Translations under genes and position numbers: made by a program
The notes under the pieces: generated by a model
Databases searched by the model: none
What the model was told of the DNA's origin: nothing
The model's input: only the letters and a program-made list of their open reading frames with translations
Part shown: positions 2,259-25,767 of the stretch, piece after piece
Layout: every line of letters starts with the position of its first letter
Numbering within the stretch: the stretch's first letter is position 1
Assembly (NCBI RefSeq): GCF_964059055.1
Contig: NZ_OZ060386.1
Location: 360,001 to 392,000, forward strand
Direction of reading: 5' to 3'
DNA from: Buchnera aphidicola (Neophyllaphis podocarpi)
GTDB lineage: Bacteria; Pseudomonadota; Gammaproteobacteria; Enterobacterales; Enterobacteriaceae
DNA: 32,000 bases

Positions 2259-3746
2259 TTATTTTTTAGTATTAAACCAGCATATATTTCTTGCTTGCAT
2301 AATTAATTCACCAGCTTTCTTATTATCTAGAAAAGGAATGTCAATTAAATCATCTATTGCTTGATCGGCTAAATTTTCTAAAGTTAAAATTCCTTTTTTG
2401 TTTAATTCTTTCAATAGTAATTTGTTAACATTTTTTAATGAAAGAATTAAAGAACTTGTTTTGCTATTTCTGATATTTTCTTCTTTAGCTAACTCTAATG
2501 TAACTAAAGCATTTCTAGCTTTATGACGTATCTCCTTAAGTAAACATTTATTAATAGTTTTTATTTCAAGTAATTCTTCAAAAGGAACATAGACTAATTC
2601 TTCTAAAGAAGAAAAACCTTCATGAAATAAAATTTCAGCTAAAGATTTATCTATACTTAAATATTTAACAAAAATATCAATTGAAGTATTTTGTTCTTCC
2701 TGATGTTTTATATTTAAATCATCTATAGTCATAACATTAAGATTCCAACCACTTAATTGTGAAGCTAATCTAACATTTTGTCCATTCCTACCAATAGCCT
2801 GTGCAAGATGATTAGATTCTACTGCTATATCCATAGAATGATTTTCTTCATCTACTATTATAGATGAAACATCAGCAGGCGCCATAGAATTAATTACAAA
2901 TTGAGCAGGATTTTCATTCCATAAAACTATATCAATTTTTTCTCCACATAATTCACTAGAAATAGCCTGAACACGAGCTCCTCTCATTCCTACACAAGCT
3001 CCTATAGGATCTATTCTTTTATCATTTGTTTTTACAGCTATTTTCGCGCGAGATCCAGGATCTCTTGCAGCAGCTTTAATTTCAATTAACTCTTCTCCTA
3101 TTTCAGGAACTTCAATTCTGAATAATTCTATTAACATTTCAGATTTAGATCTACTGATAAATAACTGTATATTTTTAGATTCATTATAAACCGAATATAA
3201 AATACCTTTTAATCTATCTCCTAATCTAAAGTTTTCTCTAGGAAGCATATCTTCGCGAATTAATAATGCCTCAGCATTGTTACCTAAATCAACAATAATA
3301 CTATCTCTATTTATTTTTTTTACTAAACCTGTTATTATTTCACCGGAACGACTACTAAACTGTTCCATAATCATAGTTTTTTCAGCTTCACGAACTTTCT
3401 GTACAATAACTTGTTTTGCTGTTTGCGTAGTTATTCTATCAAAAACAACTGATTCAATTTGATCTTCAATATAGTCTTTCACCTGCAATAAATTATTTTC
3501 AAAACGTGCTGCTTCTAAAGTAATTTCTTTTGTAGGATGAACTACTTCAGAAACAACTAACCATCTACGAAAAGTATAAAAATCCCCACTTTTACGATTA
3601 ATACAAACTCTAACATCAATTTCTTGTTCATGTTTTTTTTTTGTTGCTATAGCTAATGCACTTTCTAAAGCTTCAAAAATTTTTTCTCTAGGTAAAGATT
3701 TTTCATTAGAAACAGCCTCTACGACTGCCAAAATTTCTTTATTCAT
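2259..3746 (-). CDS. nusA: transcription termination/antitermination factor NusA
   Basis: The ORF-track frame is 2259..3782. I moved the start to the ATG at 3746 because [32 protein letters not shown] is nearly identical to the E. coli NusA N-terminus and gives 495 aa, the E. coli length. The KH-region motif [18 protein letters not shown] is present. The stop lies 13 nt upstream of the infB ATG, the classic nusA-infB arrangement. Confidence 0.96.
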
Positions 3747-4030
3747 TTTATTAAACTCCAAAAAAACTTGTAAAGAAAACAAAATAAATATTTTAAAGTA
3801 GTAAAAATAAAAATTTTTTATAAAAAAAACAAAAATATATTAATTCATTAAATTTAATTATTAAATAATTAATATTTAAGATATAAGAATTTTTTTATAA
3901 AAATCTAAAATTAAATATTTATATTTAAAAAATAATATATAATTATTGTATAAAAAATAACAATTCATTTAAAAAATAATAAAAATTAAAAATTTATGTA
4001 TATAATTTTTATTAAAATAAAGATTTCTTT

Positions 4031-4059
4031 TATAATAAAAAACCCCGAGTAAACGGGGT
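4031..4059 (-). terminator. rho-independent terminator downstream of secG-tRNALeu
   Basis: The minus-strand RNA reads ACCCCG-UUUACU-CGGGGU (stem 4042-4047 / 4054-4059) followed by UUUUUAUUAU. It is the only G+C-rich stem in a spacer of more than 400 nt of nearly pure A+T. Confidence 0.7.
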
Positions 4060-4133
4060 CAAATATAAAAATTAATAGATTTATAAAATCAAAAGTATAT
4101 AAATTTTTAAACTTTAAAAATATATTAAGAGTT

Positions 4134-4174
4134 TAAAATCTAAAAATATTCAACAAAAATATTTTTAGATTTTA
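4134..4174 (-). repeat. perfect 17-bp inverted repeat (hairpin with 7-nt loop) 24 nt downstream of the tRNA-Leu 3' end
   Basis: TAAAATCTAAAAATATT (4134-4150) and AATATTTTTAGATTTTA (4158-4174) are exact reverse complements around the loop CAACAAA. It may be a 3' processing or terminator structure; the function is unknown. Confidence 0.6.
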
Positions 4175-4197
4175 TTGAAATAATTAAAGTAGTATAA

Positions 4198-4284
4198 TGC
4201 CGAGGACGGGACTCGAACCCGCAAACTTAAAATCAAAGTACTACTACCTCAAAGTAGTGTGTATACCAATTTCACCACCTCGGC
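4198..4284 (-). tRNA. leuU: tRNA-Leu (anticodon GAG), class II with long variable arm
   Basis: I folded the cloverleaf by hand on the minus strand. The acceptor is GCCGAGG/CCTCGGC, the anticodon stem is CTACT/AGTAG with loop TTGAGGT (GAG), and the T arm is GCGGG-TTCGAGT-CCCGT. It sits directly after secG, as leuU does in E. coli. The discriminator A is followed by TTA, so no CCA is encoded. Confidence 0.9.
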
Positions 4285-4316
4285 TTATTTTTAAAAATAA
4301 TAAAATAAATAAACTG

Positions 4317-4574
4317 TTATTTATTAACATTATTTTTTAACAAATAAATATCATCGGTATCTCTGCTACTAAGATTACAAAGCAATAAGCTTATTATAAA
4401 AAAAATACAAGCAAAAAACATAGTTAATTTAGTAATAAAGTTATTATTATTAAAGTATAAAAAATTGTTTGTATTATTTTTATTTAATATATTGTTTGAG
4501 TTTTGTTGTATAATTATACATGTAATAAGAAATAAAGATACTAATAAAAAAATTAACAAAAAAAAATTATACAT
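4317..4574 (-). CDS. secG: preprotein translocase subunit SecG
   Basis: The 85-aa ORF begins MYNFFLLIFLLVSLFLITCIIIQQ, matching E. coli MYEALLVVFLIVAIGLVGLIMLQQ. The second TM segment MFFACIFFIISLLLCNL matches ALLATLFFIISLVLGNI. Synteny glmM-secG-leuU supports the call. Confidence 0.9.
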   Translation of the reverse strand: MYNFFLLIFLLVSLFLITCIIIQQNSNNILNKNNTNNFLYFNNNNFITKLTMFFACIFFIISLLLCNLSSRDTDDIYLLKNNVNK

Positions 4575-4610
4575 AAATGATCCTTATAAAATTTAATTAA
4601 ATAAAAAACT

Positions 4611-5953
4611 TTACATATTTAATCTATCAATAAAATTAGATATCTTTTTTGATAATGTTTGCACTATATTAATAAATTTACTTTCAATTAAAATACGAAA
4701 AACAGGTTCTGTGCCAGATTTACGTATAATAATTCTGCCGTAATTTCCCAATAATTTTTTAGATTTATTTATAATATATTTATATTTTTTATGTTTTATA
4801 AACATGAAATATTTTTCATAAGAAAAATTTAATATAACCTGAGGGAACAAATTAATTTCACTAGATAAACTGTGTAAACTTAATTTATTTATTATCATTA
4901 TAGAAATAATTTCTAGACTAGAAATTATTCCATCGCTGCAAAAAGATTTATCTAATAAAATTATATGACCAGAACTTTCTGCTCCTAAATTCCATTTATT
5001 TTTTTGTAATTTTTTTAAAATACAACGGTCCCCTACTTTAGAAATCTTAAAAGGTATACTTAATTTTTTCAAAGAAAAAATTAAGCCTTTATTACTCATA
5101 TAAGTAATAACAACTCCTCCTTTCAAAATACCTATATTTTTAAAATATTTTGCAATTATGTATATGATTTTATCACCACAAACTATATTACCTAAATGAT
5201 CAATCATGATCATTCTATCTCCATCTCCATCAAAAGCTAATCCAATATCTGCTTGTTCTGATATAACTTTTTTTTTAGAAAATATAAATTTGTAGAACCG
5301 CAAAATTTATTAATATTTTTCCCATTAGGAATATTAAATATATTAATAACTGTAGCTCCTAATTCATAAAATAATTTATTAGCAATATTATAAGTAGCTC
5401 CATTAGCATAATCTATAACTATTTTAAAGCGACAGGATTTAATTGTTTTTGTAAAATTTTTTTTACAAAAATTTATATAAATTCTAGATGCATTTGAAAT
5501 AGTTGAAAAATAACTCATTGTTTGATGTGTAATATAATTTGAAGTATTTTCTAATTCTAGTTCAATTTCTCTTTCAATTATATCTGATAATTTACTACCA
5601 TCTACAGAAAAAAATTTCACTCCATTAAATTCAAAAGTATTATGAGAAGCAGAAATCATAACTCCAAAACAAGATAATAACTTTGATAAATAAGATACAG
5701 CAGGAGTAGGAAGAATTCCAACAAAAATCACAGAAAAACCAGATGCAGATAAACCTGATGCAATACAAGACTCTAATATATAACTAGAAGAACGTGTATC
5801 AGTGCCAATTATAATATTTCTTGAATAATTTTTATTTAATAAAACTGTGCCTGCAGCTAATCCTAATTTTAAAATAAAATTTTTAGTAATAGGAATAGTA
5901 CCTATTTTTCCACGAATTCCATCAGTACCAAAATATTTATGATTGATCATCAA
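4611..5953 (-). pseudogene. glmM: phosphoglucosamine mutase GlmM, interrupted by a frameshift in an A9 tract (T9 on + strand, 5268-5276); possibly rescued by slippage or a sequencing artefact
   Basis: ORFs 5237..5953 and 4611..5303 together cover the full E. coli GlmM. The N half has YFGTDGIRG and SASHNT. The C half has [20 protein letters not shown] and RKSGTEP. The frames switch exactly at the A9 run, and A10 would give one gene of about 447 codons. Confidence 0.9.
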
Positions 5954-6791
5954 AATTTAAATCCTTAAATAATTTTACAATTTTAATAATATCTATAGCA
6001 TTTAGTGTTTCTTTAACATCATGAGTTCTAATAATATTAATACCTTTAAGAATAGCAATAATATTACAAGTAAGACTTCCTGCTAAAGATTCTGATACTT
6101 GTATATCCAATAATTTAGTTATCATGGATTTTCTTGACATACCTACCATTAAAGGTAAATTAAATGATTTAAATTTATGTATATTAGATAAAATTTGATA
6201 ATTATTAATGATACTTTTACTAAAACCGAAACCAGGATCTAATATCAACCTATTTCTATTTATTCCTAATGTTTCACATAATAATATTTTTTTAGAAAAA
6301 AAATTATATACTTCTTTTAAAACATTAGAATATTTATAATCATTAACTATTGTACTATTTGTTAATTTGCTATGTACAATACAACATAAAACTTCAGATT
6401 TAGATATCTCTTTTAAAGATTCATTTGTAGAAAAAGAGCGTACATCATTTATCATATGAGCTCCTTTAGCAATTGATTCTTTAATAACTACATATTTAGA
6501 TGTATCAATAGATATAAAAATATCAAATCTAGAAGATATAGCTTCTAATACAGGAATGACACGATCTAACTCTTCTTGTTCGCTTATTTCTGTATAGTTT
6601 GGCCTTGTAGACTCTCCTCCAATATCTAAAATATTAATACCTAAAGAAATCATATGATAAGCACGATCAATCGAATTAGGTAAAGAATAATATTTTCCTC
6701 CGTCAAAAAAAGAATCAGGAGTAACATTAAGAATTCCCATGACATTTATATTAGATAGATCTAATGAAATATTTTTAACTTTTATTTTCAT
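5937..6791 (-). CDS. folP: dihydropteroate synthase
   Basis: The 284-aa ORF carries MGILNVTPDSFFDGGKY, DIGGESTRP and DPGFGF, the hallmark motifs of the pterin-binding DHPS family. Its length is close to E. coli FolP (282 aa). Synteny ftsH-folP-glmM matches E. coli. It overlaps the glmM start by 17 nt. Confidence 0.93.
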   Translation of the reverse strand: MKIKVKNISLDLSNINVMGILNVTPDSFFDGGKYYSLPNSIDRAYHMISLGINILDIGGESTRPNYTEISEQEELDRVIPVLEAISSRFDIFISIDTSKYVVIKESIAKGAHMINDVRSFSTNESLKEISKSEVLCCIVHSKLTNSTIVNDYKYSNVLKEVYNFFSKKILLCETLGINRNRLILDPGFGFSKSIINNYQILSNIHKFKSFNLPLMVGMSRKSMITKLLDIQVSESLAGSLTCNIIAILKGINIIRTHDVKETLNAIDIIKIVKLFKDLNFDDQS

Positions 6792-10459: not shown

Positions 10460-10714
10460 ATGAAAATAGAAAAAATAAAAGAAACTTTAATAAAAGAGTT
10501 AAAATTAACAAAAGTATATATAAAAGGAAATGAACATCACATAGAAATTATCGCGATTGGAGATTTTTTTTTGAGAAAGAGTGAAGTACAAAGACAACAA
10601 CATGTATACAAACCTCTGATGAATTACATAACAAATAAGAAAATTCATGCTATAACAATCAAAGCATATACTATAAAAGAATGGCAATCAAAAAAATCAA
10701 TAGAAATATATTAA
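10460..10714 (+). CDS. ibaG: BolA-family acid-stress/iron-sulfur associated protein IbaG (YrbA)
   Basis: The ORF is 84 aa, the E. coli length. HIEIIAIGDFF...SEVQRQQHVYKPLMNYITNKKIHAITIKAYTIKEW matches E. coli HFQVIAVGELF...[35 protein letters not shown]. It lies directly upstream of murA, as in E. coli. Confidence 0.9.
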   Translation: MKIEKIKETLIKELKLTKVYIKGNEHHIEIIAIGDFFLRKSEVQRQQHVYKPLMNYITNKKIHAITIKAYTIKEWQSKKSIEIY

Positions 10715-10750: not shown

Positions 10751-12019
10751 ATGATAAACAAAATAAATAAAATAATGATAAATGGTCCAACAAGACTAAA
10801 TGGAGATGTAAACATTTCAGGATCAAAAAATGCATCACTGCCAATATTATTTGCTACTTTACTTACAAAAGAAAAAATAATATTAAATAATGTACCAAAT
10901 ATTAAAGATATTGAAATAACTATAAAACTATTAAAACATTTAGGTGTTAAGATTAAAATATATAAATCAACATATATAATTCAATCAAATAAAGTTAGAA
11001 AATATTCGATTCCGAACAATTTAGTTATCAGTACAAGAGCATCTATTTGGGCATTAGGAGCATTTTTAACCCGTTTTAAAAAAATTAAACTTGCATTTCC
11101 AGGAGGATGTAATATAGGACTTAGACCTATAGATATTCATATAGAAGGATTAAGAAAACTAGGAGCAATAATAAAAGTAAAAGATGGTTTTATTAAAGCA
11201 TATGTAAAAAAAAAATTAAAAGGTGTCTGTATTATCATGAAAAAAATTAGCGTAGGAGCAACAATTAATATCATGAATGCAGCAATTTTAGCAGAAGGAA
11301 CAACAATAATCAAAAATGCAGCAAAAGAACCTGAAATAATTGATACTGCTAATTTTCTTAATATGTTAGGAGCTAATATTGAAGGAGCAGGAAATTATAA
11401 AATCACTATAAAAGGAGTAAAAAGTTTAAAAGGAGGATCCTATAAAATACCTCCAGATAGAATAGAAACTGGAACATTTCTAGTAGCCGCTGCTATTTCT
11501 AAAGGAAAAATTACATGCCACAATACAAAAACAAATGTATTGGATTCAATATTAAGTAAACTAGAAGAATCAGGAGCAAAAATTAAAATTGGAATAAATT
11601 GGATAAGTCTTGATATGAAATATCAAAAACCTAAATCAGTAAATATAGTAACTGCTCCATACCCTGGTTTTCCAACAGATATGCAAGCACAGTTTACAAT
11701 ACTAAATATTACTTCACAAGGAAAAGGAACAATTAAAGAAACAATATTTGAAAATCGTTTCATGCATATTCCTGAAATAATTAAAATGGGAGCTAAAGTA
11801 AAAGTAAAAAAAAATAATATAATTTGTGATGGAGCGTCTAATTTATTATCTTCTGAAATTACAGCTAAAGATTTAAGATCTTCGGCTAGTCTAATACTAG
11901 CAGGATGCATAGCTCAAGGAAAAACTATAATAAATAATATATATCATATTCAGAGAGGTTATGAAAATATTTTATATAAATTAAAAATACTTGGAGCTAA
12001 TATAAAAATTATTAAATAA
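10751..12019 (+). CDS. murA: UDP-N-acetylglucosamine 1-carboxyvinyltransferase MurA
   Basis: The 422-aa ORF contains GPTRLNGDVNISGSKNASLPILFA, the active-site loop PGGCNIGLRPID and FENRFMHIPE, collinear with E. coli MurA (419 aa). The exact start is uncertain between the ATG at 10751 and the one at 10775. Confidence 0.95.
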   Translation: MINKINKIMINGPTRLNGDVNISGSKNASLPILFATLLTKEKIILNNVPNIKDIEITIKLLKHLGVKIKIYKSTYIIQSNKVRKYSIPNNLVISTRASIWALGAFLTRFKKIKLAFPGGCNIGLRPIDIHIEGLRKLGAIIKVKDGFIKAYVKKKLKGVCIIMKKISVGATINIMNAAILAEGTTIIKNAAKEPEIIDTANFLNMLGANIEGAGNYKITIKGVKSLKGGSYKIPPDRIETGTFLVAAAISKGKITCHNTKTNVLDSILSKLEESGAKIKIGINWISLDMKYQKPKSVNIVTAPYPGFPTDMQAQFTILNITSQGKGTIKETIFENRFMHIPEIIKMGAKVKVKKNNIICDGASNLLSSEITAKDLRSSASLILAGCIAQGKTIINNIYHIQRGYENILYKLKILGANIKIIK

Positions 12020-15544: not shown

Positions 15545-16714
15545 ATGATTTCCGATAATTCTTTGATATTCTTAAGAAAAAAAATTAATACAATTGATGA
15601 AGAAATACTATTACTTCTTCATAAAAGAAAAAAAATAGCAATTGAAATAGCAAAAATTAAAATAGATAGAAATAAACCAATAAGAGATATAAAAAGAGAA
15701 AAAGAACTAATAAATAAATTAATAAAAATAGGTGATAAAAAAGATCTTGAATCAAATTATATTTATAAGATATTTAAGATCATAATCAAAAACTCGGTAA
15801 ATATTCAAAATAATTTACTTGAAAAATATAATAATAAAAATAAAATTTATGAGCCTATATTAGGATTTTTAGGACCAAAAGGATCTTATTCAAACTTAGC
15901 AACAACAGAATATGCAAGTAAAAATTTTAATAAGTTTTCAACAAAAGGATTAAAAAACTTTCAAGAAGTTATTAATAATCTTTGCGATAATAAAATAAAT
16001 TATGCTGTTTTACCTTTAGAAAATAATAATTCAGGTACTATAAATGAAGTATATGATCTAATTGAAAAAAACGATAATTTATATATAGTAGGAGAAATTT
16101 ATATTTTAATTGATCATTGTTTATTAACTACAAAAAATGTAAAAAATATTAATAACATAAAAAAAATATATAGTCATCCTCAACCAGTTCAACAATGTAG
16201 TAAATTTATTAATCAAATTAAAAATTGTAATATTCAATATACATCAAGTACATCGTCTGCAATGCAAATAATTTCTAATACAAATTTAAATGACATTGCG
16301 GCTATAGGAAGTAAATTAGGAAGTAATTTTTATAAATTAAAAATCTTAAAAGATAATATTTCTAACAAAAAAAATAATATTACTCATTTTATAATACTAT
16401 CTAATGAATATAAAAAAAATTTAGAATTAAAAAAATCTAAAACTAGTTTTATCATAGAAGTAAAAAATAATATTACAGATTTAATAGAAATATTATTGAT
16501 AATAAAAGAAAATGATCTTAAGGTCACTAAAATAGAATCAAGACCTGCTAGCGGATCTTTATGGAATAAAACATTCTATATAGATATTCAGTCTCATTGT
16601 GATTCACAAAACATGCAAAAAGTAATTAAAAAAATTGATATTTTTACAAATAGAATTAGAATTCTAGGATGTTATCCCATATGTAATTCTTTCGATAAAA
16701 TATTAAAAATATAA
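15545..16714 (+). CDS. pheA: bifunctional chorismate mutase / prephenate dehydratase (P-protein)
   Basis: The 389-aa ORF has the CM domain LIFLRKKINTIDEEILLLLHKR..., PDT motifs GFLGPKGSYS and YSHPQPVQQCSKF, and an ACT domain with ESRP. It is collinear with E. coli PheA (386 aa). Confidence 0.93.
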   Translation: MISDNSLIFLRKKINTIDEEILLLLHKRKKIAIEIAKIKIDRNKPIRDIKREKELINKLIKIGDKKDLESNYIYKIFKIIIKNSVNIQNNLLEKYNNKNKIYEPILGFLGPKGSYSNLATTEYASKNFNKFSTKGLKNFQEVINNLCDNKINYAVLPLENNNSGTINEVYDLIEKNDNLYIVGEIYILIDHCLLTTKNVKNINNIKKIYSHPQPVQQCSKFINQIKNCNIQYTSSTSSAMQIISNTNLNDIAAIGSKLGSNFYKLKILKDNISNKKNNITHFIILSNEYKKNLELKKSKTSFIIEVKNNITDLIEILLIIKENDLKVTKIESRPASGSLWNKTFYIDIQSHCDSQNMQKVIKKIDIFTNRIRILGCYPICNSFDKILKI

Positions 16715-18493: not shown

Positions 18494-19027
18494 ATGCTAA
18501 AAAAACAAAATAAAAAACAAAAATCAAAAATTATTATAGGAAAAATTGGTTCTCCTTATGGTATTCTAGGTTGGATTTCAATATTTTCATTTACACAGAA
18601 AAAAAAAAATATATTTGCATATAATTTTTGGAAGATAAAAAAAGAGAAAAAATATTTTGATATTACAGTAATTAAATGGAAAAGAAAAAAAAATAAATTT
18701 TATGTAAAAACTAAAGAAATAAAAGATAGAACTCATGCATCACAGTTTACAAATTGTAATATATTGATTGATGAAATAAATTTACCTATATTAAAAAATA
18801 ATGAATATTATTGGAAAGATATAATAAATTGCGAAGTTTATAATTTAAATAATTATAAAATAGGATATGTTATTAGCTTAATAGAAAATGGGTGCTATGA
18901 TATTTTAGTAATAAAAACAAATCTAAAAAAAAATAAAAAAATGATGTTTATTCCTTTTATAGAAAAAAAAATCATTAAATACGTTAACATAAATAAAAAA
19001 ATCATAAAAATAGAACTACCAAATTGA
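18494..19027 (+). CDS. rimM: 16S rRNA processing protein RimM
   Basis: The 177-aa ORF contains IIIGKIGSPYGILGW and NEYYWKDIINCEV, matching E. coli IVLGKMGSSYGIRGW and GDYYWKDLMGCQV. It has the expected position in the rpsP-rimM-trmD-rplS operon. Confidence 0.9.
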   Translation: MLKKQNKKQKSKIIIGKIGSPYGILGWISIFSFTQKKKNIFAYNFWKIKKEKKYFDITVIKWKRKKNKFYVKTKEIKDRTHASQFTNCNILIDEINLPILKNNEYYWKDIINCEVYNLNNYKIGYVISLIENGCYDILVIKTNLKKNKKMMFIPFIEKKIIKYVNINKKIIKIELPN

Positions 19028-22015: not shown

Positions 22016-22459
22016 ATGAAAAAAAAAAATAATGTTTTAATATTAAATGGTCCAAATTTAAATTTGTTAGGTATAAGAGAAAAAAATATTTATGGTAATT
22101 TTACAATTGAAGAATTAATAAAAATTACTACAAAAGAAGCAAAAAAACTAAATATAAAATTATTTCATATACAATCTAATGCAGAGCATATTTTAATAGA
22201 TGAAATACATAAATGTATGAATTATATAAATTTCATAATTATAAATCCGGCTGGTTTATCACATACTAGTATATCTCTAAGAGATGCATTATTATCAGTG
22301 AATATAAAATTTATAGAAGTACATATATCTAATATATATAAAAGAGAAGAATTTAGGAAAAATTCATATATTTCTGATATAGCAGATGGAATAATATGCG
22401 GTTTTGGAATTAATAGTTATTTATTAGCTTTAAAAGCATCTGCAGAATTGTTAAAATAG
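22016..22459 (+). CDS. aroQ: 3-dehydroquinate dehydratase, type II
   Basis: The 147-aa ORF contains [15 protein letters not shown]...[15 protein letters not shown]...[17 protein letters not shown]...[14 protein letters not shown], matching E. coli AroQ motifs. It lies upstream of accB-accC, as in E. coli. Confidence 0.94.
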
Positions 22460-22924: not shown

Positions 22925-22938
22925 AAGGGAGAATTAAT

Positions 22939-24300
22939 CTGAAAAAAATTCTAATTGCTAATAGAGGGGAAATAGCACTACGTATCTTAAGAAGTTGCAA
23001 AGAAATGGGCATAAAAACAGTTGCAGTACATTCTACAATAGATAAAAATTTAAAACATGTGTTATTAGCAGATGAAACAGTATGTATAGGACCTCCTGAA
23101 ATATCAAAAAGTTATTTAAATATTCCATCAATTATTTCAGCAGCTGAGATTACCGGATCTACAGCTATTCATCCAGGTTATGGCTTTCTAGCAGAAAATG
23201 CAAATTTTGCAGAACAAGTAGAAAAATCAGGTTTTATATTTATAGGTCCAAAAGCAGATACAATGAAAAAAATGGGAGACAAAATATCTGCTATAAAGAT
23301 AATGAAAAGTTACAAAATTCCATGTATACCTGGTTCAAATAAAAAAATAAGTATAAACATGAAAAAAAATTATAAATATGCTGAAGAAATTGGTTATCCA
23401 ATTATATTAAAAGCTTCAAAAGGAGGAGGAGGTAGAGGAATAAGAATTGTAAAAAATAAATACAAATTAAAAGAGAATATAATTTTAGTAAAAAAAGAAT
23501 CTAATTTATCATTTAATGACAAAACAATATTTATGGAAAAATATTTAAATGATGCACGTCATATTGAAATACAAATATTAGCAGATGGAAAAGGTAATGC
23601 AGTATACATATCTAATAGAGACTGTTCAATCCAATTAAATAATCGTAAAATTTTAGAAGAAGCTCCTGCTATAGGTATTAATAAAAATATCATTGATAAT
23701 ATAAGTAAAATATGCATAAATGTTTGTATAAAAATAAAATATAAAGGAGTAGGAACTTTTGAATTTTTATACAAAAACAAAAAATTTTTCTTTATAGAAA
23801 TGAATACTAGAATTCAAGTTGAACATGCAATTACAGAAATGGTTACAGGAATAGATTTAATTAAAGAGCAAATAAATATATCATTTGGAAAAATACTATC
23901 AATTAAACAAAATCAAATAAAAACAAAAGGTCACTCTATAGAATGTAGAATAAATGCAGAAAATATTAAAACATTACTTCCTAGTACTGGTAAAATAGAA
24001 GAATTACATATTCCTAGTGGTTTCGGAATTCGATGGGAATCACATATTTACAACGGATATCCAATAACTCATTACTATGACTCAATGATAGCTAAAGTTA
24101 TATCATTAGGTGAAAATAGATATATTGCAATCAAAAAAATGCAAAATGCTTTAACAGAAACTATTATTAGCGGTATAGAAACAAATATAAAATTACAAAA
24201 AAAAATATTAAATAACAAAAAATTTATTAAAGGTAAAATTAATTCTAAATTTATAAAAGACATAGTAGAAAATATAAAAAATCAAAACATGCACTTCTAA
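22939..24300 (+). CDS. accC: acetyl-CoA carboxylase biotin carboxylase subunit (non-canonical start, probably CTG)
   Basis: The ORF track starts at the ATG at 23005 ([10 protein letters not shown]...). The same frame upstream reads (CTG)[21 protein letters not shown], matching E. coli residues 2-23, [29 protein letters not shown] lies at 22926-22932, 6 nt before the CTG at 22939. The remainder is collinear with E. coli AccC ([18 protein letters not shown]). Confidence 0.9.
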
Positions 24301-24817: not shown

Positions 24818-25767
24818 TTAAACATGTTTAATTAATTTAATTAGTGAAATCATATCATAAGGCAAAGAAATTCTCCATTTCATTTTCTTTTTAGTAATAG
24901 GATGATATAATTCTAACATAAACGCATGTAATGCCTGGCGATGAAATTCATTAATTTTTTTATTAAAAAAATTTTTTTTATATATCATTTTATGGTGGTT
25001 ATTAATATATAATTTATCCCCTACAATAGGATGATTAATATGTGATAAGTGAACACGAATCTGATGAGTTCTACCTGTTCCTAAAGAAATAAATAAAAAA
25101 GAAAAATTTTTAAAATAACTAATGACTTTACAGTTAGTAATTGACTCTTTACCTTTATTATTAACACTCATTTTTGTTCTATAAATTTTATGTCTAGCTA
25201 TAGGATAATTAATTTTTATATTAGAGCTAACATTACCATATACTATAGACTTATAATACCTTTTAACTTTATGTAATTTAAAATAATTTATTAAAATATT
25301 ATATGAAATAATATTTTTTGCAATAACCATTAAACCTGAAGTATTTTTATCTAAACGATGTACTATACCAACTCTAGGAATATTTATCATTTTATAATCA
25401 CGATAAAGTAATGCATTTAAAACAGTTCCATTTAAATTACCAGCTCCTGGATGAACAACTAAATTACATGGTTTATTAATAACTATTATATCTTTATCTT
25501 CATATATTATATCTAAATTTATATTTTGAGGTATTAACTCATTTAGATTACTCTGAACAATTTTAACATAAATTTTGTCTCCATTAAAAATTTTTTTTTA
25601 GGAACGTTTACAATAATATTATTTACATAAACTTGATTTTTTAAAATGACTTTTTTAAAAAAAGAACGAGAATAATTTTTAAACAAATAAACTAAAACAT
25701 AGTCTAATCTTTTTCCAAATAATTCAGAATTAAAAACAAATGAACTTAAATGATATTCTTTAAACAT
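24818..25767 (-). pseudogene. rluD: 23S rRNA pseudouridine synthase RluD, interrupted by a frameshift in an A9 tract (T9 on + strand, 25591-25599); possibly rescued by slippage or a sequencing artefact
   Basis: The N-terminal ORF 25543..25767 carries the S4 domain (GKRLDYVLVYLFKNYSRSFFKKVILKNQVYVNN). After the A9 run, the other frame, translated by hand, reads [62 protein letters not shown]...RVGIVHRLDKNTSG...GRTHQIRVH...FHRQALHAFMLELYHPIT. This is collinear with E. coli RluD, and the catalytic Asp motif is intact. A10 would give a single protein of about 316 aa. Confidence 0.88.

Follow-up and report, generated by a model that had tools for sequence, protein, structure and literature searches.

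A conserved poly(A) frameshift in glmM of Buchnera aphidicola from Neophyllaphis podocarpi and its probable correction during expression

The stretch of DNA considered here (the window, 32,000 nucleotides (nt) long) belongs to Buchnera aphidicola of the aphid Neophyllaphis podocarpi, for which the assembly size is 559,180 bp. On its minus strand lies glmM, the gene for phosphoglucosamine mutase, which is divided between two reading frames that meet within a run of nine A. We describe the locus and the lesion, the evidence from related strains that bears on whether the gene is still used, and the routes by which a full-length enzyme might be made from it. A second gene of the window, rluD, carries a lesion of the same kind and is treated alongside.

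The glmM locus and its frame break

The features of the locus are as follows; all lie on the minus strand, and coordinates are those of the window.

4611..5950, minus strand: glmM, the phosphoglucosamine mutase gene, whose 1340 nt lack one base of a frame of 447 codons; from the open reading frames (ORFs), matches to GlmM structures, TIGR01455 and the record CAL4323485.1
5237..5950, minus strand: upstream frame, with domain I and the first half of domain II, ending at TAG 5239-5237 unless the frame changes; from the ORF list and Pfam (RefSeq WP_367676042.1)
4611..5267, minus strand: downstream frame from GTT (Val), with the rest of domain II including the metal loop, domains III and IV, and the stop TAA; from Pfam and an omega (nonsynonymous to synonymous rate ratio) of 0.077
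5268..5276, minus strand: A9 homopolymer (T9 on the plus strand), the switch point between the glmM frames; from the sequence (gene nt 675-683, the same in all four copies)
5267..5273, minus strand: A_AAA_AAG, a potential -1 slippery heptamer, in phase (upstream frame CTA AAA AAA AAG); from codon phasing
5639..5653, minus strand: SASHN codons, the catalytic phosphoserine loop, residues 100-104; from the sequence and the invariant columns S100, A101, S102, H103 and N104
5214..5231, minus strand: DGDGDR codons, the Mg-binding loop, in the downstream frame only and 5' of the first internal ATG (5213); from the sequence and the invariant columns D241-R246

Read on the minus strand, positions 5303-5237 begin TTG CGG TTC TAC AAA TTT ATA TTT TCT AAA AAA AAA GTT, and the run comprises exactly nine A. 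The upstream frame reads the same region as TGC GGT TCT ACA AAT TTA TAT TTT CTA AAA AAA AAG TTA TAT CAG. Its ORF (5237..5953) encodes 238 amino acids (aa) if counted from TTG, or 237 aa from the ATG chosen by the depositors at 5950, and stops at the TAG at 5239-5237, 13 codons past the tract. The downstream ORF (4611..5303, 230 aa) is open across the tract; its frame has no stops in 218 codons, against 30 stops in each of the other two frames. Neither half of the gene has a stop in its own frame, and the total length of 1340 nt is of the form 3n+2, the frame break at A9 being the sole lesion.

A run of nine A is by itself ordinary in this DNA (21.9% GC) and not above chance, because the 32-kb window holds 23 A/T runs of at least nine and 82 of at least eight. 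Sense-strand poly(A) runs of at least nine occur 19 times inside genes of the window, and 17 of these are in frame. Long in-frame tracts are found in intact genes, with A10 in nusA (3633-3642) and murA (11206-11215) and A11 in aroQ (22019-22029) and rimM; the last of these (18494-19027) has three A9 runs in addition to its A11 within 534 nt. The notable feature of glmM is thus the frame break, not the run itself.

The identity of the product can be assessed from both ORFs and from the protein that results when the frame is restored. With Pfam, the upstream ORF matches PGM_PMM_I (2e-37) and positions 3-57 of the PGM_PMM_II profile, and the downstream ORF matches positions 76-103 of PGM_PMM_II, followed by PGM_PMM_III (2.9e-24) and PGM_PMM_IV. 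The four-domain PGM_PMM I-IV architecture is therefore complete across the two ORFs and, because the domain II profile divides between them, the frame break must lie inside domain II, just before the DGDGDR loop. The repaired protein of 446/447 aa aligns end-to-end with the GlmM structures 3pdk, 7ojr and 6gyz (E 1e-83 to 1e-90), the best match being 3pdk (2.6e-90), and the junction is spanned without a gap. Against the NCBIfam equivalog model TIGR01455 the repaired protein reaches 461.8 bits, above the cutoff of 447.55, and covers profile positions 1-441 of 442. We aligned it with GlmM from two other Buchnera, Tachikawaea, Pantoea, a psyllid symbiont, Yersinia and Providencia. In this eight-sequence alignment four loops fall on invariant columns, namely SASHN, DGDGDR, the sugar loop GAExSGH and the phosphate loop RxSGTEP (RKSGTEP here). 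On these sequence criteria the encoded product is GlmM, predicted to interconvert glucosamine 6-phosphate and glucosamine 1-phosphate as the GlcN-6-P to GlcN-1-P mutase. The genes glmS and glmU are located outside the window.

The alignment also bears on how the frame is to be restored. Every aligned GlmM has three residues between the invariant L225 and V229; they are KKK in the repaired protein and KLR, KKI, KNR, LKC and QER in others. A reading equivalent to A10 (L KKK V) is the only one that restores this Leu-x3-Val spacing in the alignment. A reading equivalent to A7 restores the frame but fits the family poorly, because one of the three residues between Leu and Val is dropped. At the same position Buchnera of Melaphis has an in-frame A8 (TTA AAA AAA ATA GTA), while Buchnera of Floraphis has TTA AAA TTA CGA GTA; taken together, these two sequences indicate that the site is a recurrent A-run formed by Lys codons. 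Most simply, an ancestor of the Neophyllaphis Buchnera would have had A10 at this site and then lost one A.

An earlier note on this DNA had placed the split of glmM in the A9 run at 5268-5276, and had described a single lesion in an otherwise intact and conserved gene with its catalytic motifs preserved, which on repair would form one uninterrupted gene of about 447 codons. The coordinates, the ORFs, the lack of in-frame stops in either half, the invariant motif columns and the gap-free repaired protein bear out each of these statements, and murA (10751-12019), which the note had called intact, is so. Its remark that either ten or seven A would give an intact frame needs qualification: both do restore the frame, but A7 breaks the family spacing and only A10 fits.

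Conservation and selection in related strains

Three further sequences were compared with the window, namely the complete genomes CP135042 (from N. varicolor) and CP135039 (from N. podocarpi) and a Logan assembly of SRR29340286. In all three, glmM is 1340 nt long with A9 at the same position. CP135042 differs from the window at 4 positions of the gene and CP135039 at 58 (4.3%), and the 1340 nt are free of indels. In its sequence the Logan contig (L002) matches CP135042 exactly, which suggests that the same or an equivalent sample lies behind it; it is thus an independent assembly but not an independent sample. A different laboratory produced the CP1350xx genomes, from Illumina NovaSeq 2x150 reads (PMC11193766). 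Systematic under-calling of long A runs in the window is also unlikely, because the same assembly resolves the in-frame A10 and A11 tracts noted above. From these comparisons we conclude that the glmM frameshift is real and fixed, and not a sequencing error; A9 is read here from assemblies, and a minority A10 allele may be present within the population. A search with the repaired GlmM of species-representative genomes returned 76 pattern matches, none of which was confirmed, and a pattern in which the tract length was left free (A7-A11) found nothing in genome and metagenome contigs; as both searches were empty, they add neither further strains nor alternative tract lengths.

The host labels of these genomes deserve a separate comment. 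The window, which is labelled N. podocarpi, has 4 glmM differences from the 'N. varicolor' genome CP135042 and 58 from the 'N. podocarpi' genome CP135039. Either the two laboratories have labelled the hosts inconsistently or the species themselves were mixed up.

The pattern of substitution in glmM was analysed by Nei-Gojobori counts between the window and CP135039, and an 8.4 kb shared region was compared. The upstream half of the gene has 13.8 synonymous and 14.2 nonsynonymous differences (omega 0.27). The downstream half, which is out of frame with the start of the gene, has 22 synonymous and 8 nonsynonymous differences, giving an omega of 0.077 and a binomial p of 2e-10 against neutrality. 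For comparison, the intact neighbours rlmE, ftsH, folP, secG and nusA have omega values of 0.05-0.22 and no indels. The spacers between ftsH and folP and between secG and nusA together contain 12 indel events in 762 nt, whereas glmM has none in 1338 nt. Since the frameshift is shared by strains that are 4.3% divergent, it must predate their split, and the low omega and lack of indels of the downstream frame indicate that it has been translated and selected since then. Both halves of glmM are, by this substitution pattern, under purifying selection, and glmM is very probably functional through some form of recoding at the tract. It should be emphasized that the case for function rests on the substitution pattern, which is strong, and not on any assumed essentiality of the gene, because peptidoglycan genes are dispensable in some Buchnera.

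One further observation concerns the sequence around the tract. Positions 5119-5299 form a stretch of 181 nt without substitution relative to CP135039, which spans the glmM tract and the DGDGDR codons and is the longest such stretch in the 8.4 kb. Stretches of 156, 152 and 143 nt come next in length; the margin is slight and was noticed post hoc.

The second frameshifted gene of the window, rluD, has two features of relevance.

24818..25767, minus strand: rluD, 950 nt (3n+2), a second gene with the same kind of lesion; from two ORF fragments on RluD profile positions 4-65 and 127-313 and a three-frame reading
25591..25599, minus strand: A9 frame-change tract of rluD (CCT AAA AAA AAA TTT), needing one added A or a -1 shift; from the sequence, with A9 also in L006 and L007

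The depositors joined this gene too, as a protein of 316 aa (CAL4323939.1) with the junction NVPKKKIFNGDK. Its A9 is kept, without indels, in an N. varicolor-type contig (L006) and in CP135039 (L007). The downstream part of rluD has an omega of 0.114 with 21 synonymous and 11 nonsynonymous differences (p = 1e-8). Substitutions flank the tract 8 nt upstream and 17 nt downstream and, because they lie so close to it on both sides, there is no general conservation of tract flanks that would suggest a dedicated signal. On its sequence and conservation, rluD is a second conserved A9 frameshift of the glmM kind, calling for the same correction.

Routes to a full-length enzyme

Transcriptional slippage that adds one A is, in our view, probably the main route by which glmM is rescued. 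In the proposed scheme, an ancestral in-frame CTA AAA AAA AAA GTT (A10) would have become A9, probably by replication slippage. RNA polymerase would then slip back on the nine-A/U hybrid and add one A in a fraction of transcripts. The resulting A10 mRNAs would encode the full 446-aa enzyme, and the unslipped A9 mRNAs would give a truncated product of 237 aa that is presumably degraded. Several published observations make such a scheme plausible. According to a passage in PMC3017870 that cites Tamas et al. 2008, frameshifted poly(A) genes of endosymbionts yield a mixed mRNA pool in which about 30% of transcripts are full-length. In Buchnera transcription, 151 of 157 insertions were found in homopolymers, at a frequency that rises exponentially with run length, and single-base events made up 80% of all transcription insertions in that study (PMC5574713). 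Bacterial polymerases are well known to slip where nine A or T follow one another, nine bases being the length of the RNA:DNA hybrid (PMC5009743). The correction that glmM needs, one added A, is the commonest product of slippage. We infer RNA-level rather than ribosomal correction, as well as the fraction of transcripts rescued and the sufficiency of the enzyme made. Slippage at the frequency that the rescue model demands would be expected to put a good part of the rimM, nusA, murA and aroQ transcripts out of frame.

There are observations that count against this scheme. In the Buchnera transcriptome analysed by Traverse and Ochman, none of the transcription errors found brought a gene back into frame (PMC5574713). 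The polymerase and the -1 ribosomal routes yield an identical protein, and on that ground are inseparable by comparison of sequences. Finally, several other Buchnera lineages no longer have the peptidoglycan pathway (PMC9672956), and glmM is therefore not indispensable for Buchnera in general.

The ribosomal route requires most consideration amongst the alternatives. Here the full-length enzyme would arise mainly from a -1 frameshift on A_AAA_AAG: with Lys-tRNAs on AAA in the P site and AAG in the A site, the ribosome would move back one base and continue with GTT, making the same protein as the A10 mRNA. The heptamer is of the dnaX type and in phase, the direction of the shift is exactly the correction needed, and the rluD tract likewise has an in-phase A_AAA_AAA. 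Both E. coli and Buchnera have a single tRNA-Lys(UUU) for AAA and AAG, which makes A_AAA_AAG especially shifty. This route is equally compatible with the evidence for purifying selection, and indels offset by 'corrective' frameshifting form a recognised class (PMC5009743). The in-phase heptamer was nevertheless dropped as a clue, since every A9 run holds an in-phase slippery heptamer in any frame; the match is automatic and carries little weight.

Stimulatory elements of the dnaX type were looked for around the tract. At glmM no stem-loop or pseudoknot was found at 5-8 nt downstream of the heptamer: the folding energies of the following 48 and 68 nt, -5.1 and -6.0 kcal/mol, are no better than those of shuffled sequences (z = 0.14 and 1.40), and the one strong stem nearby does not start until about 52 nt past the slip site. 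The 25 nt upstream (GGTTCTACAAATTTATATTTTCT) contain no GGAGG- or AGGGAG-like element that could serve as a Shine-Dalgarno-like stimulator. An Rfam scan of positions 4000-6200 at E <= 1 found no frameshift element, only a tRNA and a chance match to a small RNA, and at the gathering score the whole window gave three tRNAs and no frameshift element. The flanks of the rluD tract are, moreover, not conserved. Slippery heptamers without a stimulator usually shift at only a few per cent. We consider the -1 shift unlikely to be the principal route to GlmM, though a slip of this sort may possibly contribute beside transcriptional slippage. The account of rescue in the earlier note, which drew on the slippage precedent, was apt in that respect but overlooked this alternative on A_AAA_AAG.

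It could also be asked whether the A9 state is itself selectively held, such that dependence on slippage keeps GlmM (and RluD) at a low fixed dose. We regard this as improbable. Were it true, A9 would be a heritable throttle on expression and hence on the supply of peptidoglycan precursors, maintained through selection on the symbiont or at the level of the host. It would explain the absence, in either lineage over about 4% divergence, of a sweep from A9 to A10, a change that is easily made, and might account for the stretch of 181 nt free of substitutions over the tract.

A split enzyme, in which the 237-aa piece would combine, with no frameshifting, with a C-terminal piece begun at TTG 5303 or by reinitiation to give an active protein, is very improbable. 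It is true that both ORFs are open and under purifying selection, that the ORF in the C-terminal frame opens at TTG 5303, 5' of the tract, and that the NCBI Prokaryotic Genome Annotation Pipeline (PGAP) annotates two separate proteins. The break, however, lies inside domain II and not between domains. The TTG has no usable ribosome-binding site, the nearest GGGA ending 17 nt upstream. Reinitiation at the first ATG of the C-terminal frame (5213) would leave DGDGDR out of both pieces, because this ATG lies after the loop, so that neither would carry the metal loop. In addition, the single-base pattern of rluD, at another A9, points to a mechanism based on the tract and away from two split enzymes that evolved separately.

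Less credible again is that glmM has been truly lost, as a young and unrescued pseudogene that has merely not had the time to decay. Homopolymer indels are a typical first step in the erosion of Buchnera genes (PMC3017870), several Buchnera lineages lack peptidoglycan genes (PMC9672956), and automated pipelines score genes such as this as pseudogenes. Against this, the lesion is older than a split at 4.3% divergence, and since then synonymous changes in the downstream half have outnumbered nonsynonymous ones by 22 to 8 (p = 2e-10) with no stops and no indels. At the rate of the spacers, 1340 nt of neutral DNA should have gathered about 20 indel events. The earlier note had thought real loss of function unlikely, and the omega of 0.077, the zero indels and the retention of the frameshift across this divergence all speak for its view.

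The least credible explanation is that the genome truly has A10, glmM being an ordinary intact gene and the frameshift an artefact of sequencing or assembly (a possibility that the earlier note had raised): homopolymers are a classic site of errors in base-calling and of slippage in the polymerase chain reaction, but A9 is present in all three deposited genomes, from two groups, and in the Logan re-assembly, the data are Illumina, longer in-frame A10 and A11 tracts were correctly called in the same assembly, and the depositors left the frameshift in on purpose, joining the coding sequence (CDS) under a stated curation rule.

Annotation, known systems and neighbouring genes

In RefSeq, PGAP has rendered the two halves of glmM as 'hypothetical proteins'. 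In contrast, the depositors' own record (CAL4323485.1) is a joined 446-aa 'Phosphoglucosamine mutase' that is identical to the repaired protein. A rule for such cases is described in bioRxiv 10.1101/2022.08.28.505559: after Tamas et al. 2008, genes with frameshifts in A/T homopolymers are annotated as functional, with attention to conservation in related strains. We infer that the assembly of the window came from the same group or followed its protocol, which is unconfirmed. The joined GlmM and RluD records can be understood from this rule, which was also applied to pheA (below). A literature search, outside which the gene list of Tamas et al. 2008 fell, found no paper on glmM or rluD of Neophyllaphis Buchnera. 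The phenomenon is nevertheless already known, the public record already encodes the interpretation, and what is known of the mechanism is unchanged. The reading put forward in the earlier note is thus supported in that its junction is identical to that of the public joined GlmM, and the precedent of Tamas et al. 2008 that it invoked is the one followed by the depositing community; its novelty was overrated, since the depositors had already joined the gene.

The closest known cases are those of Buchnera and Blochmannia (Tamas et al. 2008; Wernegreen et al. 2010; summarised in PMC3017870). They resemble glmM in coming from AT-rich obligate insect endosymbionts and in having a one-base indel in a sense-strand poly(A) run of at least nine within a gene that is otherwise intact and under purifying selection, the frameshift being shared by related strains. 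The present case differs in the gene, glmM, and in the host lineage, Neophyllaphis. Similarly, pheA with a conserved poly(A) interruption in Buchnera of Periphyllus/Chaitophorinae was judged functional by its annotators, from this conservation and from Tamas et al. 2008 (Manzano-Marin et al. 2023, bioRxiv 10.1101/2022.08.28.505559); there both the gene and the aphid subfamily are different, and the window's own pheA (15545-16714) is intact.

Two better-studied systems are instructive by comparison. Thermus thermophilus dnaX and certain insertion sequence (IS) elements likewise rely on realignment of the polymerase on A9, with extra A's giving access to the other frame (PMC5009743). Those systems are programmed and yield two useful products, whereas the unslipped product of glmM is truncated and of no evident use, and its tract is one of many. 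E. coli dnaX has the same in-phase heptamer, A_AAA_AAG, and the same direction of shift as glmM. It has, however, an upstream Shine-Dalgarno-like stimulator and a downstream stem-loop, neither of which is found at glmM, and the shift truncates the protein in E. coli dnaX but would complete it in glmM.

Some observations on other genes of the window may be recorded here. The gene folP (dihydropteroate synthase; 5937-6791) lies between ftsH and glmM in all the Neophyllaphis Buchnera compared; in Buchnera of Floraphis and Melaphis (L004 and L005) glmM directly follows ftsH, with no folP at this position. By this gene order, the presence of folP is a difference between lineages in retention of the folate pathway. 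Just upstream of murA, an ORF of 84 aa (10460-10714) has a weak match to the BolA family (31 bits against a cutoff of 137) and, by its position, is probably a much diverged homologue of ibaG/yrbA. We considered accC as a third frameshifted gene because its ORF is short by 23 N-terminal profile residues, and rejected it, as the missing residues are in the same frame. At 22925-23005 there is no ATG, GTG or TTG for the first approximately 23 conserved residues, while the frame is open and a GGGAG is followed 7 nt later by CTG (ATT AAT CTG AAA AAA ATT CTA ATT GCT AAT AGA GGG GAA). From this sequence, CTG or ATT acting as a non-canonical start seems a better explanation than a lesion.

The value of the glmM case is mainly practical, as a warning that automated pipelines split or discard genes of this kind. 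A comparative study of peptidoglycan synthesis in Buchnera, for example, discarded any frameshifted CDS as a pseudogene (PMC9116674). Either splitting by PGAP or a filter of this sort would lead to this lineage being wrongly scored as unable to make UDP-N-acetylglucosamine (UDP-GlcNAc) and peptidoglycan precursors, even though its murA is intact. Together, glmM and rluD add two well-supported cases to the poly(A) frameshifts retained by endosymbionts, from a Buchnera lineage whose host, Neophyllaphis, has been proposed as the sister to all other aphids. Both genes need one added A, which is the commonest error of Buchnera transcription, and this fits the idea that the only frameshifts to survive are those that can be corrected by the dominant product of slippage.

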